Below, piece after piece: positions 9,304 through 27,156 of a stretch of 39,007 nucleotides of DNA. Positions within the stretch are counted from its first letter, which is position 1; each line of letters begins with the position of its first letter. Both the position numbers and the translations under genes were made by a program. Under the pieces are notes generated by a model that saw nothing but the letters and a program-made list of their open reading frames with translations, made no database searches and was not told where the DNA came from. The stretch lies in the NCBI GenBank assembly GCA_018985235.1, contig JADGIG010000026.1:1-39007 (forward strand). Direction: 5' to 3'. Source of the stretch: Sanchytrium tribonematis (lineage: Eukaryota).

Positions 9304-10203
9304 ATGTTCGCTTGTGAATGGGAAGGCTGTAGCGTTAAGGAAAATAATTCAAAATCTCTTTATGATCACATACAGAAAGCCCATATCGGCTTTAAACGAC
9401 AAGGAACTTTACAAAGCCATTGTAAATGGTTAACATGTGATTTTACGACGGAGAGAAGAGACAGAATGAGATCTCATGTCCTTTGCCATATAGATGCCAA
9501 ATTATTTGAATGTAATCTCTGTCATAAATCATATAAATGGAAGCATGATTTAGGATCACATCAAAGAAAAGTTCATGGTAGAGATAAGAGTGATAGAAGG
9601 AAATCCAGCGCAGAATCTATTGACAATACACTTTCGAATTACCGTAGACACAGTTCAACCAGTCTTTTGGACTTGGAGCAAATGCGGCTTACTGTCGATC
9701 AGAATAATCCTGAATCATTCTGCGTAGAATCCTCATCGCGAGGTACATCTCCTGGACCCTCTGATCATTTGAGTCCCGGTAACATTCCAATAAGAAGGCA
9801 TTCGATGCAAGACACTGCGGATCTCAATGGGGGAATTCCTATGATTTATCAGCGTAGGGTTTCGGATACAGACATTCCTATGACCCAGGGCCTCATGGTG
9901 GCTCCAAATTCGGCGCAGCAAATGATGACAACAATGTCCGGCCAGATGGTCTATCCTCATTCGCCTATTATGGAGAGCGGTCAGTCTCCTATCCATGGTG
10001 TCTATATGGCACCGTACCAGGGATATGGTTTTGAATCGAACAGCAATTACCAGCAGTCTGCAAGTGCGCCACCTAGTTTGTCACCTTACCAAAGAAGTGT
10101 TACTCCAGAAATTCAAATTCAGGTAAATGACCAGAATCTATCCAATTACGGCCAAAATTTTGGAAATGGTCAGCCTTATTATCATGTAACTACAAATGTT
10201 TAA
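9304..10203 (+). CDS. Three-finger C2H2 transcription factor, PacC/Rim101-like
   Basis: CEWEGC...HIQKAHIG...CKWLTC...RDRMRSHVLCH...CNLCHKSY...DLGSHQRKVH; tandem CxWxxC fingers as in PacC; low-complexity S/P/Q/M tail. Confidence 0.8.
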   Translation: MFACEWEGCSVKENNSKSLYDHIQKAHIGFKRQGTLQSHCKWLTCDFTTERRDRMRSHVLCHIDAKLFECNLCHKSYKWKHDLGSHQRKVHGRDKSDRRKSSAESIDNTLSNYRRHSSTSLLDLEQMRLTVDQNNPESFCVESSSRGTSPGPSDHLSPGNIPIRRHSMQDTADLNGGIPMIYQRRVSDTDIPMTQGLMVAPNSAQQMMTTMSGQMVYPHSPIMESGQSPIHGVYMAPYQGYGFESNSNYQQSASAPPSLSPYQRSVTPEIQIQVNDQNLSNYGQNFGNGQPYYHVTTNV

Positions 10204-10252
10204 ATTGAGTAAATATTTCGAAAATAAAGTGAGGCCGTTTTTTGAAAATTTT

Positions 10253-11278
10253 ATGAACGACCTTTCGATCCAGAAAGCAAGAGACGCAGAGGAAGAAAGA
10301 AAGAGAAGAATTCTTGAGAACCCTAAGTATTTTATAAGTATTGAAAAAGCAGCTTTGGATTTTCAAGTAGAACAGAAGGAAGCCAGTAGAAAATTACAAT
10401 TAGAAAAGGAAAACCTAATGGATTTAGCCCTTATTGAATCTGAAAGGAAGGTTGCCCAACTATCCCAATTGCAAGCTTCCAACAAAAAAGCGCGAGAAAT
10501 GATAAAATTAAATCTAAAGAGCTTGAGGAACTTCGAAAGTTGTGAAATAAACCCAGAATGCTGCGGCGTTTCCAGTGCGCAAAACTTTTCAAAAATCAAT
10601 TATGAAGAGAAAGGGATTCTTGCAAAACGAAGATTTGAACTCAAAAATTGGCTAGATATCTTAAGTAAAGAAAAGTTGGAGGCAGAAACGAAATATCAAA
10701 GTTTAGTTATTTCTCAAAATAAGAAGAATGAAGAAGAATTCAAAATTTCGAATAGTTTGCACTTACAAACTGAAAAGCAGAAGATTTTAGAATCGAAAGC
10801 TATTCAAAATTTTAATTTGCATTTGGCCGAAAATCGTAAGAAAAACATTTTAAAGGAAAAGCAAATATCAATTGAAGCCAAGCTGAACGAGATTTCTACT
10901 GCTTCAAAAAGTGACTTTTTAAATGAAAAAAAATCTTCAATAGAATACGATATTGCTAATACCAAATTTATAGATTTTAAGGGCTTAAGTAAAGATGCCA
11001 ACCTTAGAGTAAGTGGAATACTGAAGAAGCAAATTAATGAGCACTCAGTTGATAGAATAAATTGTCGTGCTATGGAATTGAAAGAAGCGTGGCAACTTGA
11101 ATCAGAAAATCACACATATAAAAATTTAATTCGACAATCTAAAGATGGCAAAGTTGATAATTTGGTAAAAATTAAAAAAAATAATCAATTTTCGTCTCAA
11201 AATCGAACGCGAATTGAAAAGGTGAGCAAAAATGTTGATAATTTTTTTGAAAAATCATTTATGAAAAGTTCCCGATAA
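10253..11278 (+). CDS. RIB43A: RIB43A-like axonemal ribbon / microtubule inner protein
   Basis: EEERKRRI...AALDFQVEQK, CGVSSAQNF, DFKGLS, C-terminal FFEKSFMKSSR; coiled coil. Likely ATG at 10253. Confidence 0.75.
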   Translation: MNDLSIQKARDAEEERKRRILENPKYFISIEKAALDFQVEQKEASRKLQLEKENLMDLALIESERKVAQLSQLQASNKKAREMIKLNLKSLRNFESCEINPECCGVSSAQNFSKINYEEKGILAKRRFELKNWLDILSKEKLEAETKYQSLVISQNKKNEEEFKISNSLHLQTEKQKILESKAIQNFNLHLAENRKKNILKEKQISIEAKLNEISTASKSDFLNEKKSSIEYDIANTKFIDFKGLSKDANLRVSGILKKQINEHSVDRINCRAMELKEAWQLESENHTYKNLIRQSKDGKVDNLVKIKKNNQFSSQNRTRIEKVSKNVDNFFEKSFMKSSR

Positions 11279-15270: not shown

Positions 15271-15352
15271 TATTCGTTTGAAGACAAACTACTGCCAAAA
15301 TATGCGCAACACCATTGTCTTTTTTATCTTGTGTCCCAATTTGAAACGATTT

Positions 15353-16096
15353 ATGAGCGATATTATTCAATGGCATTTGGATGGTTGGTATAAGGGTATA
15401 TTTTGTGCCTTGAGTTTGTTGTCACTCTTTTTATCAATTCCAAGTTTCTTTGAGCAAAGTGCTTTAAGTAAAATTAATGGCATATTGGTTTTATTGACAT
15501 TGTTTGCGATGATTAGCAGACCTACCAGAATGGTTTATAGCGCAGATGCATGTGGAGAGATATCTGTATTATATTGGGCGCTAACTTCTGTTTACGTCGG
15601 ATTCGCATTCGTATATTATGGAGCTAGAACCGAGAATTATAAATGTCTGGTGTTCGCTGCGGGCGCTTCAATAACCATTTTTCATTTAGTGGCAATTTTG
15701 GGATATAATTATGATTGTCCTGACGGCATGCTTATTGATGAATATTTCAGTCCTTGGACGTTTTTTAGCGGTGTGTCTCTGATACTTTTTGGAAGCGCTG
15801 TTTTAGTCATAACACATCGATCTCTACGCGGCCTCATCGATTTGGAAGATAGCAGGTTGACTAGGATCAACATGCTGAGTAAGTTTTCCTTATTTTTTTC
15901 AGAATTTTCATTAGTTTTGGCTGGAATTTTTTCATTCACAATCTATTCAAATATACGACTATTTTTTATGTTTCTTTCAGTCTATTTGATAACTACTAGC
16001 CATTTAGGCCTCCTACTTCAGAAATCTTTGCAGCAAGATACAAAACCAAGCGCTAATGTTGAGAGTTTGTCCGTAGGAAATGTTCATAATAAATAA
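15353..16096 (+). CDS. Orphan multi-pass membrane protein, probably 7TM (about 247 aa)
   Basis: Seven hydrophobic segments; Cys before TM3 and in the TM4-TM5 loop. Start uncertain (15302 or 15353). Confidence 0.7.
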   Translation: MSDIIQWHLDGWYKGIFCALSLLSLFLSIPSFFEQSALSKINGILVLLTLFAMISRPTRMVYSADACGEISVLYWALTSVYVGFAFVYYGARTENYKCLVFAAGASITIFHLVAILGYNYDCPDGMLIDEYFSPWTFFSGVSLILFGSAVLVITHRSLRGLIDLEDSRLTRINMLSKFSLFFSEFSLVLAGIFSFTIYSNIRLFFMFLSVYLITTSHLGLLLQKSLQQDTKPSANVESLSVGNVHNK

Positions 16097-16119: not shown

Positions 16120-16437
16120 ATGTCAGAGCAGGATCAACAAACGGTTTTGATGGCAACTGCGCAAAGCCTGCAAAATGTTCAAGGACAGCTCAAAACAATT
16201 GCATCGCATAAAAAGAAGACACAGATTGTGGAAAAAACTATATTAGCCCTGCCTGATGACACTCAATTTTACTCTAGCGTAGGTAAAGTTTTTTTACCAA
16301 AAACGAAAGATAACGTAAAAGGAATGTGTAAAACCGATATAAAAGAGTTGGATGAGACTTTCATGGGCTTATTAAAAAAGAAAGATTATTTTGAAAAGCA
16401 AATTGTGGAATTACAAAAACAGTTGCAAAAGAAATAA
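16120..16437 (+). CDS. PFD1: Prefoldin beta-type subunit (probably subunit 1)
   Basis: Coiled coil, beta hairpin (LPDDTQFYSSVGKVFL), coiled coil; ...KKKDYFEKQ. Confidence 0.8.
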   Translation: MSEQDQQTVLMATAQSLQNVQGQLKTIASHKKKTQIVEKTILALPDDTQFYSSVGKVFLPKTKDNVKGMCKTDIKELDETFMGLLKKKDYFEKQIVELQKQLQKK

Positions 16438-16444
16438 ATTTATT
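16433..16444. terminator. Palindromic bidirectional poly(A) signal AATAAATTTATT (prefoldin / CyclOp)
   Basis: Contains both TAA stop codons, 2 bp apart. Confidence 0.65.
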
Positions 16445-18044
16445 TTCTTCCCATCACCCAGTAAGTTTTCATTATTCCTTTGCCTTTCACCTGCATGGGT
16501 TCCATTTCGTCGCAAATGAAACCCTTTGAAGCTATCAATCTGTAGGTGTCTTCTGAAATGTGAATGTGTCCGGCCTTTGATGTGCTTTCCATTCTTGATG
16601 CAGTATTTACTGTATCTCCGACTAAACACCAATGCGGGTTCAATTCCCCTAGGATTCCGGCCGTCACTGGACCAGAATTTAATCCAACTCGAATATTAAT
16701 TGACTCTCCAAAAGATGTTTTGAATGTTCTAATCATCTCCATAATGTCTAAGGAAAAGTTTACGGCCTTTTCTGCATGATCAGCAGATTTTGTTGGACAG
16801 CCACAAACTCCTAGAAATGCATCTCCAATTGTTTCAACCTTATATACTCCCCATTTCTTAGCTATTTTGTCGTATTCCTGCCAAAGCAAGTTCAAAGTCT
16901 TCATCATTTCTTTTGGAGTGTTTCTGGAGCTTAAAACTGTATAATTAGCGATGTCCGAGAAAAATACTGTTACCGACTCAAATTCCTCTGCCTCAGTTGA
17001 TTTTCCTTCCTTCATTGCTTGCAAAACATCTTCAGGCATCATCAAATTTAAGATTTTATCAGCATTAGTCATTTTTTCCTCGAGGTCTTGAGCTATAGCA
17101 GTAATTTCCTCAACTCGTTCATTTTGGGCTTGTTCGATTGTTGTGTTCATTAAAACCAAAGTCAAAAAAACTTTAGCTCCGACATCTGCTAAGCAAAGTA
17201 ATGCTTCGTACATTTGGAACGAAATTGCATCTCCATGAAATAAGAAAGTTGTCACGGGAAATGCTGTCCAAGTAAACAATGTTGAGAATCGAATCACTTT
17301 TAACGTTGTCGGATCAATGGAGCAGCCGTTTCTTCCTTCGATTGCATCAGTGAAAAAGGTGTAAAGCGATTTCACTACATGAGCGAAACAAAACAACGCA
17401 ACATAGTGACACCACTCACAATATGGATATGGGAGAATTGCACCGAAAAATCCAAAAATTACTAAAGTGTAGTCGCTTAGAATAGCACTTACTACATCTG
17501 ATTCAGATTTTGTCAATTCATTGATGATCAAAATCAAAGAGGGACAAGTTGCAATCCATTCTAGATACCTTGCAGGTTCCACTGGCTGGCCTAATATTCC
17601 ACCATCAAGACTGGGTGTTAGTTGAAAAGCCATCAAGACATATGAAGTAAAAGAAACAATATCTACCAATAATAAAACCAGTGAAAGGTTTCTTTTTTCA
17701 GGATTTGTGGAAGAAAAGAAGCCGATCATTGCAAAAACTATCCCTAAACTAAATGCAACTGCGTTGTATAGATAAAACTGGGAGGTATTGCTTCTGAAGT
17801 ATTCAGTCTCGCTGGAATTGTTCAATTGATATATTGCACAGGAAAGGGTTGCAAATATGTAAACACCAAAGTTAAAATATACAAATTTGACGCTTGCAGA
17901 ATTCATAGTACTAGTCTCATTCAGTATTGCAGTAGCCTCATCCACAGTCAAATCCTTTTTAGTACTACCCAATTTTGCGTTTTTTGCAGTTTTAATGGCT
18001 TGAGAGAGCCCTGAACTTCTTTTCTTCAGAGTGCTAGTTGACAT
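16440..18044 (-). CDS. CyclOp: Rhodopsin-guanylyl cyclase fusion (CyclOp/RhoGC, BeGC1-like), 534 aa
   Basis: Type-1 rhodopsin domain with extra N-terminal TM, PARYLEWIATCP and retinal Lys in ADVGAKVF; coiled-coil linker; class III cyclase FFSDI, KVETIGDA, HWCLVGDTVNTASRMES. Confidence 0.96.
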   Translation of the reverse strand: MSTSTLKKRSSGLSQAIKTAKNAKLGSTKKDLTVDEATAILNETSTMNSASVKFVYFNFGVYIFATLSCAIYQLNNSSETEYFRSNTSQFYLYNAVAFSLGIVFAMIGFFSSTNPEKRNLSLVLLLVDIVSFTSYVLMAFQLTPSLDGGILGQPVEPARYLEWIATCPSLILIINELTKSESDVVSAILSDYTLVIFGFFGAILPYPYCEWCHYVALFCFAHVVKSLYTFFTDAIEGRNGCSIDPTTLKVIRFSTLFTWTAFPVTTFLFHGDAISFQMYEALLCLADVGAKVFLTLVLMNTTIEQAQNERVEEITAIAQDLEEKMTNADKILNLMMPEDVLQAMKEGKSTEAEEFESVTVFFSDIANYTVLSSRNTPKEMMKTLNLLWQEYDKIAKKWGVYKVETIGDAFLGVCGCPTKSADHAEKAVNFSLDIMEMIRTFKTSFGESINIRVGLNSGPVTAGILGELNPHWCLVGDTVNTASRMESTSKAGHIHISEDTYRLIASKGFICDEMEPMQVKGKGIMKTYWVMGRK

Positions 18045-21081: not shown

Positions 21082-24036
21082 TTACTTATCAGTTTGACTT
21101 TCCCCCAAAGGCTGTTTCAAGTGACAGACACTGCACCAATTTGAACTCAACAAGACCTTGCATCTTGAGCATCGTATCCCAGACTTGCATATAGTTCCTT
21201 TATCATCAAACTCAATTTTCATAGTGCAATTTGAGCATGTACTACTTATGTTGCTTTTAGCATTGCAATGGACACAATCTATTAAATCGCAGCTCTCTGA
21301 ATTGTTTCTAGAAAAAGTCTCAGTAAGTAGGTTTATGCATGTTATGTATATATCTTTAGAGCGCAACAGCCCAAAGCATGCGGATGATATGGCATAAAGC
21401 TTTAAATTAAATGCACTTAAACCTCGAAGTAATATGACGGTGAGAAGTGGCAATGTTCTTGAGAGTAGACAAGGCGTTGTTAGTTTAAGGGTTTCGCTGT
21501 AGTATTCATTTTTATAATTTAATAAGGCTTTATAAAAATAGTGGTATTCAATACAAACTGTAAAATTATTACTTGCACAGCCTTTCAAAAAGGCTAATTT
21601 TTTGTTACTGAGCAGATCTTCATAGTTAAGGCTTTCCAGCTGTTGCAGACATTTATCGTACATAGAGATCCCAAAAAGAAATTTAACATTCGTATAAATA
21701 TTGCCGTAAGTAATATCATTATGCTGTTCGTAAGTTAATTTTTGGTATATATGATTTGTTTTTAATTCGAGCAATTGCGTGGGGCTATCTACTTTAATGA
21801 TAGAGTAGTTACCAGATTGAAATTTATATTTAAAAGGAATTTCGCTATGTTTGATTTGATCAAATTTTCTCGCCGACAGTAAACACTGTGCAGACAGCTC
21901 ATACTCCGAAATAGAATCGAAGCATTTTGATGCCTCCAAGAAGCTCCCTTTTTTCTTTAAATTGATACCGACATTTTTAAAGCAAATTTTACGAATACTA
22001 TTATCTTGAATTAAATTTAAATAAGGTGCCAGCTTTTCAAGCGATTTTGTTTGTATGAGATAAAGGCAAAGATCATTAAAGTCTCCCTTATGCTTTAAAG
22101 TAGATATCACCTCATCAACTTTTTTAAAGTATTTCAAAAGTTCAATGGCCAGGTCCTCTTTTGAAAGTGACATCAACAGACGACAAAATTTCATTAAATC
22201 TTTGGACTTTGCCTTAATAAAACAAGAGAGTGCCTCATCTATCTTGTTTTGGTTAAGAAATTTTATTCCAATTTGCTTGTACAAATTCAAAGCCTCGTTC
22301 GGAATTAAGGAAGAGACATTAGGTGATTCTTTGTCTATTATACTTGAAAATTCGGTAAAATAATACTTAAACACGTCTACTGGTTTGAAGTTATTTGGTA
22401 ATTGTTCATAGCTAAAATATCTAACGATATAATTTGTAAATTCGGCTAAATAATCACCATCAATAATAATCGACTCTGAATTAACAATAACCAGTTTTTG
22501 TTTTTCAATGCAACAAACACCAAAGTCTTCATTGAATTTGAAGTCCAAAACATTGGGTCGTTTAAATTTTGCTTTGAATGGGTTGAGATCGTAAACATGT
22601 AATGTCTGACCTAAAAGAAGGCCCAATTGACCGAACTTCACCTCAAATTTAATCAAATTTTTCACTTCCCCACATTCCAATTCATATGAAAACAGCTGCT
22701 TCAGTTCAATATCAAAACCAGACACTTGCCCGCCTTTAAATAAAACATATAATACTTCTCTATAAGAAACACATGAAATACATTCTACTGAAGTTGCATT
22801 TGGGAACTTAAATTCTTTGAATTCTATTTTTCTCACTATATTGTCTACGTAAAAAATAGTTGGTTGATTAAAATTAAAGACTGTTGATTTGTAAATGAAG
22901 TAGTGATTCTTTGTAATAAAGCCTAAAAAACTTTTACAAATAGAGACCTCGAGTACGTTTTCTTTGATTTCGACTATTTCCAGAATTCGTCCAATTTTGT
23001 CAGCTATGGTGACTTTGGATTTTCCATCTTGGATCTCGCAAAAAACCAAGAACGAATCATTGGCGTGAAATGCTGAAAGTCCAGCTACTCTTATAGTCTT
23101 GAAGTTCAATGGGGTATACACACATATACAACTTTTGTCCATAATATTTTTTTCGTAATACAATATTCCAGTATCATATATTACTCGGTGATGACACCTA
23201 TATTTTAAAAACAAAACTTGAGACAAAGAGACAGAGGCTAGTGTTCCACCGTAGCTCATCAAAAATTGTTCATTAGTGGTATGTAAGTTCAGTTGACTTG
23301 ATAAAGAACCTGCTTGATTGTAAATTTGCAACATTCCTTTACGACAAATAAGTATGTTGTTTTTAATAAAAATCATATCGTCTCCTACACCAAAATCTAT
23401 CACTTTGTTAAGGTCCAAGTCGCTACATCCATATATTGTCTTTTCAGTTTTGATCAGAATTTTAAGATTTGTTTGCAATAGTTCTATGCCAGTGTTGAAA
23501 AGAAATTTGACAGGATTTTGGATGTTCAGCAGAAAAGTGCCCAGTTGAACCCCAGTCCAGTCGTACTTAACAATTTGACAAGGGCTATCAGTTAAAATCA
23601 GGAGATTTGAGTCAAGCCATTTACAATCTTTAATGGAGAGGTCTCGTAATTGAATTCCCCAATTAAGTTGGCCTAAACCAGTCCCTACAATGATCTGGCC
23701 GTCAGAATAAGCTATGGCTAAATAGGTTCTAAACGCAATACTAACAACTTTGGACAGATTTTTATGGTTTGACATTTCTTCATAGTAAGCATTTTGGTAA
23801 AATTTCCATATAATTAGAAGACCGCTTGAATCTCCAGACGCCAAATACTCCCCGTAGCACTCAATGCTTGTAATCTCTTCCTTGTGGCCTACAAGCTCTT
23901 GTATTTCATGATTCGAATTAATTACCAATATTGTGCCAGAAGTCAGTCCAATAAACTTATTTTCATTCATACATACACAACTGACTGAATTGCTTTTAGT
24001 ATTAATTAAAATAGAAGAATTGATCCAAGCAAACAT
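21082..24036 (-). CDS. IFT121: Divergent IFT-A subunit IFT121/WDR35
   Basis: LVGH...SGDSSGLLIIWKFYQNAYYEEMSN...IAYSDGQIIVG...WG parallels the WDR35 N-terminus; helical repeat region; C-terminal CxxC pairs. Likely ATG at 24036 (MFAWI). Confidence 0.75.
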   Translation of the reverse strand: MFAWINSSILINTKSNSVSCVCMNENKFIGLTSGTILVINSNHEIQELVGHKEEITSIECYGEYLASGDSSGLLIIWKFYQNAYYEEMSNHKNLSKVVSIAFRTYLAIAYSDGQIIVGTGLGQLNWGIQLRDLSIKDCKWLDSNLLILTDSPCQIVKYDWTGVQLGTFLLNIQNPVKFLFNTGIELLQTNLKILIKTEKTIYGCSDLDLNKVIDFGVGDDMIFIKNNILICRKGMLQIYNQAGSLSSQLNLHTTNEQFLMSYGGTLASVSLSQVLFLKYRCHHRVIYDTGILYYEKNIMDKSCICVYTPLNFKTIRVAGLSAFHANDSFLVFCEIQDGKSKVTIADKIGRILEIVEIKENVLEVSICKSFLGFITKNHYFIYKSTVFNFNQPTIFYVDNIVRKIEFKEFKFPNATSVECISCVSYREVLYVLFKGGQVSGFDIELKQLFSYELECGEVKNLIKFEVKFGQLGLLLGQTLHVYDLNPFKAKFKRPNVLDFKFNEDFGVCCIEKQKLVIVNSESIIIDGDYLAEFTNYIVRYFSYEQLPNNFKPVDVFKYYFTEFSSIIDKESPNVSSLIPNEALNLYKQIGIKFLNQNKIDEALSCFIKAKSKDLMKFCRLLMSLSKEDLAIELLKYFKKVDEVISTLKHKGDFNDLCLYLIQTKSLEKLAPYLNLIQDNSIRKICFKNVGINLKKKGSFLEASKCFDSISEYELSAQCLLSARKFDQIKHSEIPFKYKFQSGNYSIIKVDSPTQLLELKTNHIYQKLTYEQHNDITYGNIYTNVKFLFGISMYDKCLQQLESLNYEDLLSNKKLAFLKGCASNNFTVCIEYHYFYKALLNYKNEYYSETLKLTTPCLLSRTLPLLTVILLRGLSAFNLKLYAISSACFGLLRSKDIYITCINLLTETFSRNNSESCDLIDCVHCNAKSNISSTCSNCTMKIEFDDKGTICKSGIRCSRCKVLLSSNWCSVCHLKQPLGESQTDK

Positions 24037-24162
24037 TTTCAAACCTTGGAGACTCGGAAAGAAAGAAAAAAAGAAAGAGGAGGATTTATTAACATATCGG
24101 AGCTGAAGGACATGTATATGATCCCACAAATGCATCACTTTTGCCTCTAGCTGTTTCCCAAA

Positions 24163-24304: not shown

Positions 24305-25687
24305 CTAATCGTCATCACCGAGTTTTTTAAGACCCCACTGTGGTCTTTGACCCGTCCAAGTACCAAAATCACGAGTTGCTGGTTTGGGGGCATTCAAAAT
24401 TTTAACATAGTCATAGGTGGTTTCTCCCATTTCAGCAGCATCAATTCCAGATTCCTCTTCGGATGCATTTAGCTGTAAGGATAAACCTGGTATTCTATTA
24501 ATTATTAGAAGTATAATACACGTCAAAACAAATGACCATAGGAAACACACAACGCAACTCAAAATTTGCCATTTTATAACTCCCTCTCCTTCCACTAATC
24601 CGGATTCTTTCAAAGTAATACCATCAATATCTGACCACTTTCTTTCAGCAAAAACACCGGTCAATATATTACCAGCAATTCCACCTACTCCATGCACTGT
24701 GAATACATCCAACTACATTATTTGTAATTACTGTGTCATCAAGTTGCAGCTTTTCTTTTGCAATAACGCCAAGATAACAAAAACTACTTCCTATCATTCC
24801 TATTAGCAGCGCATACCCAGGATTGACGAACCCGGCTCCGGGAGTGATTGCAACTAATCCCGCAACGGCTCCGCAACAAAAGCCTATTGAAGAAAATTTT
24901 TTAGTTCTTAAATAGGACCACAACATCCACGCTAGAGAGCCTCCGGAAGCAGCCATATTTGTGGCCATTATTGCAGCCGCTGCTCTTGGTCCAGAACTAA
25001 GTGCACTTCCCCCATTAAATCCGTTCCAGCCGAACCAAAGAAAAAGGGTTCCTAGAAGAACATTGGCAGGAGAATGTGCCGAACTTTTTGCTTGGTTTCT
25101 TCTTTTGCCCAAAATTAATACGAATGCCAATGCAGCTGAGCCCGAAGCAATACTAAATTATAAATAATTACTGTACTGGCGAACCTCCTGCAAAATCAAG
25201 TACTCCAGCTTTATTCAACCAACCGTTGGTGTTCCAACACCAATAGGCTATGAAATCGTAAACTTAATTAAAAATAAATACCTAAGGTTGTCCAAATAAA
25301 TACGAATACTATTTTCGGTAGCAAACGGGCGTTTTCAGCACCAGCTCCTACAACAAGTGCCGGGGTTATACCTGCAAATGCTGATTGATATATTGCAAAT
25401 GCATAATCAGGATATTTAGAATTTGGATCCGTTTCTGAAGTCAAATGATTAAATCCACCATTATAAAATGAACCTATAAAATCCCCTCCTTCTGAGGAAA
25501 ATACCAGTGAGTAGCCGAACATAAACCATTGTATTAAAACAACTGAATAGGTTAAAAAACAAAGCAATAATATACTTAAAGCTGCTTTAGATGTTGTCAA
25601 TCCAGAGTAGAAATATCCAAGTCCAGGGATCATTATGAATACTAACGTACTGCATAAAAGTAAAAAGCTCGTGTCACCAGCAGTCAT
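24305..25687 (-). CDS. Ammonium transporter (Amt/Mep) copy 1, four exons (25282-25687, 25172-25262, 24732-25152, 24305-24712; 441 aa)
   Basis: PGLGYFYSG, DFAGGSPVHIASG, LWFGWNGFNGGS, AGLVAITP and DDTLDVFTVHG are all restored after removing three 19-nt introns. Confidence 0.93.
24713..24731 (-). other. 19-nt spliceosomal intron (GTAATTACAAATAATGTAG)
   Basis: Restores DDT|LDVF. Confidence 0.9.
25153..25171 (-). other. 19-nt spliceosomal intron (GTAATTATTTATAATTTAG)
   Basis: Restores the conserved His codon CA|T in PVHIASG. Confidence 0.92.
25263..25281 (-). other. 19-nt spliceosomal intron (GTATTTATTTTTAATTAAG)
   Basis: Restores WTTLVYDFIAYW, colinear with the paralog's intronless WSIFVYDFIAYW. 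Confidence 0.92.
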
Positions 25688-25835
25688 TTTAAGTTATACA
25701 AGCCACATAAATTTGAAACCGCAGACATATGTTCATTATTATTACAATTATTAATTATTTATAAAGAATTGATCCATTTATCGCCACATGGTCAAAAGCG
25801 GATAAGAAAATTGAGATTGTCATTCAGGATTAATT

Positions 25836-27156
25836 TTATTCGACATTGTTTAGTGGTTCTTCTGATTCCTTGACTCTCATGTCTCCTTTCTTAGTTTGAC
25901 TATGTAAAAAGTCAAAGGAAAGCTCTCCAATCTCTGAGATATCAACCCCTGCCTCTTCATGATGGGCTTGTAATCTGAGACTCAAACCTGGAATTTTATC
26001 CAAAACTAGTACAATAACCCCAGTGATAACAAATGACCAACCAAAACAGGCCAAACAGTCTATTAATTGCCATGCAAGCAGCATTCCGTCACCTTCTATA
26101 ACGCCGGTGTATTTTATGGTAGCGCCACTTAAACTAGGCCAATATCTTTGAGTACAAAAGCCAGTCAAGATATTTCCAACAATGCCGCCAACCCCATGGA
26201 CTGCAAAGACATCTAGCTATATAAGTTTAAAATACAGTGTCATCAAAATTGAAATACTCCTTAATTTTTCCTGCAAAATTACAACAAAAAGCACCAATGA
26301 TTCCAATAAGAATGGAGCTTCCTGGTGATACAAATCCTGATCCAGGTGTGATTGCCACCAAACCTGCAACCGCCCCACAGCAAAAACTAATTGCACTAAA
26401 TTTTCCAGTTTTATAGTAGTCTATAATCATCCAAGTCAATGATGCACTTGAGGCTGCTAAATTTGTCGTAATAATTGCTGCCGCAGCTCTTCCATTAGCT
26501 CCCGCAGCACTTCCACCATTGAATCCATTCCATCCAAACCATAAAAATAAGGTACCCAAAATGACATTAGCTGGCGAATTGGGTAAAAACTCTTGATTTT
26601 TTCTTTTACCAATTACCAAAGCATATGCAAGTGCAGCCGCTCCGCTGGATATATGGACGGGGGAACCACCAGCAAAATCAAGAGATCCATTCAAGTTGAG
26701 CCAGCCATTTGGATTCCAAACCCAATATGCTATAAAGTCGTACACGAAAATTGACCACAAGAAAATAAATACCATCTTTGGGAGAAGTCTAGCTCGTTCG
26801 GCAGTGGCCCCGATAACTAAAGCAGGACTAATACCGGCAAAGGTGGACTGAAAAAAAACAAATGCATAATCGGGGTATGTAGTTTTATCAGCAACAACGC
26901 TACCCAATCCCACAAAAGCCCCATTTGTAAAAGACCCGATCATTGGACCACCATCAGCAGCAAAGACAAAGGAATATCCAAACAAAAACCATTGAATCAT
27001 TACAATTGAATACGATACAAAACAAAGAAGTAACATAGACAAAGCTGACTTGTTATTACACAAACCGCTATAAAAGTATCCCAGTCCAGGAATCATTGAA
27101 AATACTAAAGCTCCTGATATTAATAAAAATGCAGTATCTCCAGAATCTGAGCCCAT
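25836..27156 (-). CDS. Ammonium transporter (Amt/Mep) copy 2, two exons (26236-27156, 25836-26216; 433 aa)
   Basis: AERAR, DFAGGSPVHISSG, LWFGWNGFNGGS, DDT|LDVFAVHG. Confidence 0.93.
26217..26235 (-). other. 19-nt spliceosomal intron (GTATTTTAAACTTATATAG)
   Basis: Restores DDT|LDVF; same position as the third intron of copy 1. Confidence 0.92.

Follow-up and report, generated by a model that had tools for sequence, protein, structure and literature searches.

The fungus Sanchytrium tribonematis encodes, on the minus strand of contig JADGIG010000026.1 (positions 16440..18044), a rhodopsin-guanylyl cyclase (RGC) of the CyclOp type, designated P0001 here. Its domain layout, its retinal-binding and catalytic residues and its place in the phylogenetic tree are established below, and by analogy with BeGC1 (BeCyclOp) of Blastocladiella emersonii and CaRGC of Catenaria anguillulae the protein is likely to work as a homodimeric, green-light-activated source of cGMP.

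The sequence is already published and is a known member of a well-studied family. Sanchytrid fusions of this kind were first reported as BeGC1 homologs of 532 and 535 aa in two species (Galindo 2021, PMC8371127), the length of 535 fitting P0001 since it corresponds to 534 residues plus the stop. The dataset of Broser 2023 (PMC10622942) includes RhGC(St)/1-534 of S. tribonematis, equal in length to P0001 and matching it by eye over the first 400 residues, which are those covered by the comparison, as well as RhGC(Ag)/1-531, which matches its relative P0004; one row per sanchytrid species was found there. Apart from Broser 2023, the literature found on the sanchytrid rhodopsin consists of genomic, phylogenetic and review papers, including a phylogenetic treatment of sanchytrid proteins (Galindo 2022, PMC9616733), and sanchytrid RGCs are absent from the pocket figure and from the visible part of the spectral table of Broser 2023. 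No functional test of P0001 (activity, spectrum or expression) was found in the literature searched, most subscription journals lying outside its coverage. With the gene reported and the family well studied, P0001 adds little as a discovery; it is useful as a test object.

Gene and genomic context

The RGC gene is 1605 nt in length and runs from ATG to TAA in a single intronless frame of 534 codons without internal stop, while the plus-strand frame over 16440-18044 is riddled with stops. This unbroken translation bears out the intact, intronless fusion described in the initial annotation, the coordinates of which were exact and to which the minus strand, unstated there, can now be added. The window, that is the whole stretch of 39,007 nucleotides analysed, is gene-dense eukaryotic DNA with a GC content of 36%, and it carries both housekeeping and flagellum-related genes; a GC content of about 35% has been reported for two sanchytrid fungi (Galindo 2021, PMC8371127). 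A viral or foreign origin of the RGC gene was rejected, since its GC (0.379) and GC3 (0.342) are near those of five neighbour genes and the surrounding genes are ordinary eukaryotic ones. A Pfam scan of 36 ORFs of the window revealed neither a second RGC nor a further rhodopsin or cyclase, nor any CNG channel. Two scans of metagenome_contigs gave 138 and 320 pattern matches, none of which was confirmed as a related locus.

A prefoldin gene (16120-16437, plus strand) converges with the RGC gene, leaving 2 nt between the two stop codons, and therefore each 3′ UTR must overlap the opposite coding sequence. Approximately 340 nt from the RGC gene lies a hydrophobic, multi-pass membrane ORF of 264 aa (15302-16096, plus strand), for which no Pfam match and no Atlas match above 0.78 were found. 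Two tandem ammonium transporter genes (24305-27156, minus strand) are each broken across several frames, probably by short introns.

The window also has an ORF for a RIB43A-like microtubule inner protein (10196-11278, plus strand; Pfam E-value 6e-17, PDB RIB43 E-value 1e-5), which is retained in this lineage, for which singlet-microtubule axonemes are reported. A further ORF of 1017 aa (21082-24135, minus strand), with a Cys-rich tail at its C-terminal end, has its best matches to WDR35/IFT121; the Pfam match (E-value 5e-21) is under the curated cut-off and that to human WDR35 in the PDB (E-value 3e-10) covers aa 79-194 only. Sanchytrids are said to be without all IFT-A proteins (Galindo 2021, PMC8371127), although the annotation supplement of the same paper has a WDR35 match in Amoeboradix; judging by its sequence, this ORF may be a very divergent IFT-A subunit that has been retained.

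Domain architecture and structural model

P0001 is a single chain in which a type I rhodopsin precedes a class III cyclase, with the Pfam domains Bac_rhodopsin at aa 90-304 (E-value 3e-25) and Guanylate_cyc at aa 351-531 (E-value 3e-57). An AlphaFold2 model built from an alignment of 79 rows (mean pLDDT 85, pTM 0.59) has eight membrane-length helices, these being aa 50-75 (TM0), 87-111, 115-139, 157-178, 184-203, 208-235, 245-270 and 276-326, with low confidence at the N-terminus and at aa 327-335. All feature coordinates that follow are on the minus strand. The chain begins with a short cytoplasmic N-terminus without a Cys cluster (aa 1-49, 17898..18044), delimited by alignment and by the low-confidence part of the model, in which helices are predicted at aa 11-22 and 34-46 (helix -1). 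The helix TM0 (17820..17897) is predicted with block pLDDT values of 89-97 from residue 51 and aligns with TM0 of BeGC1, in agreement with the extra N-terminal membrane helix ahead of the seven rhodopsin helices that had been read from the sequence. A simple hydropathy scan placed only five segments of P0001 above threshold and missed TM0 of BeGC1 too.

The rhodopsin part (TM1-7, aa 87-300, 17145..17786) is delimited by Pfam, PDB matches and the model, and is closest among solved structures to SrRhPDE (E-value 5e-23), followed by bacteriorhodopsin (BR; E-value 5e-13). In the model TM7 extends without a break into the next segment, which is consistent with the helical linker of the initial annotation. 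This linker, with the cyclase transducer segment (aa 301-350, 16995..17144), is 92% identical within the four-member clade described below and shares 29 of its 50 residues with CaRGC. The class III guanylyl cyclase (aa 351-534, 16443..16994), assigned from structure matches and alignment, has 133 of 183 residues identical to CaRGC, and its model gives TM-scores of 0.95-0.98 against the crystal structures of the CaRGC and BeGC1 cyclases, with 0.97 for 6SIR/5OYH. A full-length RGC chain was not among the PDB matches listed, and a literature search found no full-length RGC structure since 2023.

Functional residues of the rhodopsin and cyclase

All of the motifs quoted in the initial annotation are present at their sites, namely RYLEW (159), TCP (166), DVGAK (287), FSDI (362), VETIG (403), IGDA (406) and HWCLVG (471). 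The 12 reference residues of CaRGC (E254, C259, D380, K384, D457, E497, D501, R545, C566, N573, R577, and K612) are likewise all identical in P0001. In the rhodopsin these correspond to the counterion E162 (CaRGC E254, BR D85; 17559..17561 by alignment), C167, and the D287-x3-K291 stretch (CaRGC D380/K384; 17172..17186), which contains the second counterion and the retinal Schiff-base lysine. In the cyclase they are the metal-binding pair D364 and D408, the guanine-selecting E404 and C473, the Asn/Arg residues N480 and R484, and R452 and K520. As E497 and C566 decide between GTP and ATP in the Be and Ca enzymes (PMC5967339), the retention of E404 and C473 points to the GTP specificity called initially, and an adenylyl cyclase identity was rejected on these two residues. 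It should be mentioned that W472 (Ca W565), which adjoins the guanine-selecting Cys, is Tyr or Phe in the relatives P0002, P0003 and P0004.

The E/D/E counterion triad of NeoR is replaced in P0001 by E162/T166/D287, with Thr (T166) where NeoR has Asp at the second counterion position and with Asp instead of Glu in helix 7. Identity with NeoR was rejected on this triad and on the tree, which puts P0001 in another clade; the pocket is canonical, as had been supposed.

Relatives and phylogenetic placement

The homolog search listed 120 matches, of which P0001-P0114 were aligned and the six weakest left out. The closest relatives of P0001 are P0002-P0004 (75-80% identity, 524-533 aa), and the open frame is kept in all four sequences at this level of identity; BeGC1 and CaRGC are 57% identical over 91% of the length. 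In a quick IQ-TREE analysis of the 94 rows that reach 440 aa or more, with SH-aLRT support and no bootstrap, P0001-P0004 form one clade (SH-aLRT 100) within an unresolved group, itself with a support of 100, that contains Blastocladiomycota RGCs and a clade of P0023, P0025, P0031 and P0065. The four-member clade stands away from RGC(a) and from the NeoR-like rows, a label of our own assigned from counterion residues. The phylogeny that had been proposed as a check thus groups the protein with Blastocladiomycota RGCs outside the NeoR/RGC(a) clade, as for a homodimeric RGC(b), and domains, residues and tree all agree with the original assignment to the CyclOp/RGC family. Sanchytrid sequences were also placed in homodimeric RGC(b) by Broser 2023 (PMC10622942), and short branches have been reported for the sanchytrid BeGC1 and BeCNG1 proteins (Galindo 2021, PMC8371127).

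P0065 (EukProt label Colp12) is a rhodopsin-cyclase of 530 aa on a long branch in the Blastocladiomycota/sanchytrid group, in which Ala replaces the guanine-selecting Cys. The label is presumably that of a holozoan protist (Syssomonas). If it is right, and the sequence is not a contaminant, P0065 would be an RGC outside fungi, of which no report was found in a literature search.

The short N-terminus

Ahead of the alignment column of BeGC1 residue 147, P0001 has 53 aa and no Cys, against 146 aa and seven Cys in BeGC1 and CaRGC. The long, Cys-clustered N-terminus of the Blastocladiomycota type is therefore absent, and the N-terminus is indeed shorter than in BeCyclOp, as the initial annotation had it. 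Across the clade of four, residues 29-46 share 69% identity, above the value for TM0 (50%), yet have 0/18 identities to BeGC1 and CaRGC, which suggests a functional helix -1 specific to this lineage. When shortened by 90 aa, BeCyclOp stays active, with raised activity in the dark and reduced activity in the light (PMC4569695), and is left with an N-terminus of 56 aa, near the 53 aa of P0001. CaRGC is active minus 43 aa and dead minus 139 aa, and its activation has been proposed to involve two beta segments (PMC8575461) that are absent from the N-terminus of P0001. By analogy with the shortened BeCyclOp, the dark activity of P0001 is possibly above that of the full-length enzyme, and the altered dark activity suggested in the initial annotation is a reasonable guess. 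Being a close BeGC1/CaRGC relative with a naturally truncated N-terminus, the protein bears on how this segment gates the cyclase.

Counts were made on 77 aligned rows, among them the four clade members, that begin with Met and have 15 or more residues ahead of TM0. An N-terminus of at most 53 aa is found in 42 of these rows and a total length of at most 534 aa in 47, both being upper bounds because some database models may be 5′-truncated. Working homodimers of 506-507 aa with short N-termini have already been noted (Broser 2023, PMC10622942). With small size this common and such homodimers functional, the case made initially for a smaller tool candidate is weak, and P0001 is compact only beside BeCyclOp and CaRGC (626 aa). 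The N-terminal motif of 5-7 Cys is shared by the RGCs of Blastocladiomycota and many of those from chytrids (31 of the 77 rows, examples being P0008, P0009, and P0045) and looks like a metal-binding module; a literature search found nothing on the role of this cluster.

Retinal pocket and predicted absorption

The four clade members share without variation the pocket core of P0001 (E162, W163, C167, W259, F262, P263, D287, and K291). Differences from BeGC1 are V195, I196, A216, L217, T266 and L283, at positions which agree with Fig. S3 of Broser 2023. By alignment, T266 (17247..17249) occupies the site of BR W189 (W359 in Be/Ca) and is specific to the clade, Thr being found there in 4/4 members and in 0/105 other homologs with a residue at this position. 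The 110 other aligned rows have 73 W, 15 F, 10 Y, 2 H, 5 A, no T and 5 gaps, so that a ring-packing aromatic (W/F/Y), absent here, is present in 98 of the 105; among the five Ala rows is a divergent Allomyces clade whose pocket is altered at other sites too. SrRhPDE, which has Glu (Glu271) at the W189 site, binds retinal and absorbs at 492 nm (PMC7644710).

A216 (17397..17399), aligned with BR S141 and replacing the Ser of Be/Ca, is predicted to shift absorption to the blue. Ala at this site is less special, occurring in 33 of 99 others with a residue there and in two of the four clade members. Changes of the S141A type shift other rhodopsins blue by 240-560 cm-1 (PMC8815786), which applied to 530 nm gives by arithmetic about 515-523 nm. 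The P186 proline, the loss of which marks red-shifted RGCs, is kept in P0001, whereas it is missing from those RGC(a)s that absorb at 550 nm or beyond. Given the retention of P263, T166 and A290 and the change from Ser to A216, the absorption of P0001 is expected near 500-530 nm (green to blue-green), probably a little blue of BeGC1. The clade, with its pocket residue found in none of the 105 other homologs, might yield a bluer cGMP actuator.

Proposed mechanism and alternatives

Following studied relatives, retinal would bind K291 with E162 and D287 as counterions and would be isomerised by light; the change would travel via TM7, the linker and helix -1, releasing the cyclase dimer, in which D364 and D408 would hold the metal and E404 and C473 would pick GTP over ATP for the production of cGMP. 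In the organism, cGMP would open a CNG channel, BeCNG1 having been reported in both sanchytrids (Galindo 2021, PMC8371127), and retinal would be supplied by the algal host. According to the same paper, sanchytrids are without carotenoid or retinal synthesis genes, their flagellum does not drive movement and their zoospores do not swim. The output therefore cannot be swimming phototaxis and, as the flagellum does not beat, would be the steering of crawling or the timing of settlement. B. emersonii is the only species for which phototaxis has been demonstrated (Broser 2023, PMC10622942); the zoospore phototaxis ascribed to the family in the initial annotation holds for that species and does not carry over to sanchytrids. 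These algae-parasitic fungi keep a light sensor, having lost flagellar motility and retinal synthesis, and the output of P0001 would show what a fungal eye does without swimming. It is conceivable, if rather doubtful, that sanchytrids rebuilt the CyclOp N-terminus with their own helix -1 and retuned the pocket with Thr at the BR-W189 site, giving a blue-shifted cGMP switch under tight light control, which would use host retinal and steer amoeboid crawling or settlement without a beating flagellum.

Relatives that look intact can fail, AmCyclOp2 having almost no activity and AmCyclOp3 being equally active in dark and light (PMC4569695). The absent beta segments, the replacement of the ring-packing aromatic by T266 and the missing retinal synthesis genes also weigh against the main reading. 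P0001 might be a leaky or largely light-independent cyclase, its light control weakened once some 93 residues at the N-terminus and the aromatic at the W189 site had been lost in a lineage with neither a retinal pathway nor a beating flagellum. The behaviour of the shortened BeCyclOp, the light/dark ratio of 1 in AmCyclOp3 and the missing retinal synthesis genes all fit such a loss. We nevertheless consider it unlikely, as the pocket core is invariant in a clade whose rhodopsin parts are 72% identical, natural homodimers with short N-termini work, and SrRhPDE binds retinal with a non-aromatic residue at the same site. It is very improbable that P0001 is one half of an obligate heterodimer like NeoR/RGC(a) in Chytridiales; subunits of that kind do keep the full catalytic set and have short N-termini, but P0001 falls outside their clade, the only reported heterodimers are those of Chytridiales and C. 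replicatum (Broser 2023, PMC10622942), and P0001 is the one RGC among the 36 ORFs scanned in the window, as is RhGC(St) the one row found for its species.

The short N-terminus itself could be an annotation artefact if a Cys-rich first exon had been missed, given that introns seem present in some genes of this genome (the split ammonium transporter and aminotransferase frames), that truncated gene models may account for many of the short homologs in databases and that the 5′ end of the RGC gene is read from the genomic sequence. However, an in-frame stop lies eight codons upstream of the ATG, and the 196 nt between the RGC gene and its upstream neighbour have two TGT/TGC triplets, too few for a motif of 5-7 Cys; the annotated start therefore looks real. 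The start position of P0001 is shared by P0002 and P0004, which are similar there in sequence, P0003 starts 12 residues later, and none of the four has a Cys before TM0. A missed exon was rejected as highly unlikely on the Cys-poor gap and the agreement of the relatives' starts.

Comparison with known systems

As a probable homodimeric, light-activated cyclase, P0001 is most readily compared with BeGC1/BeCyclOp and CaRGC, which share its arrangement of TM0, seven transmembrane helices, linker and cyclase, as well as the counterions, Schiff-base lysine, metal and guanine residues and P186. It differs from both in being 92 aa shorter, in lacking the 7-Cys N-terminal motif, in the unrelated sequence of helix -1 and in four pocket residues (S309 to A216, C310 to L217, W359 to T266, and F376 to L283). 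GpRGC1/2 and GhRGC2 of Rhizophydiales (Broser 2023) are light-active homodimers of RGC(b) with short N-termini, and P0001 is likewise RGC(b) by placement with a short N-terminus; GpRGC2 and GhRGC2 differ from P0001 in their smaller size of 506-507 aa, in the missing P186 proline and in absorption maxima at 565-571 nm. The NeoR/RGC(a) heterodimers of Rhizoclosmatium globosum and others have the same domain order and cyclase motifs, but NeoR differs in its counterions and belongs to a different clade. SrRhPDE of Salpingoeca rosetta (PDB 7CJ3/7D7Q) is the best solved match for the 8-TM rhodopsin part and resembles P0001 in its non-aromatic W189 site, whereas its enzyme is a phosphodiesterase and that of P0001 a cyclase. 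RhGC(St), which was used for phylogeny, has no difference from P0001 over the 400 residues compared.
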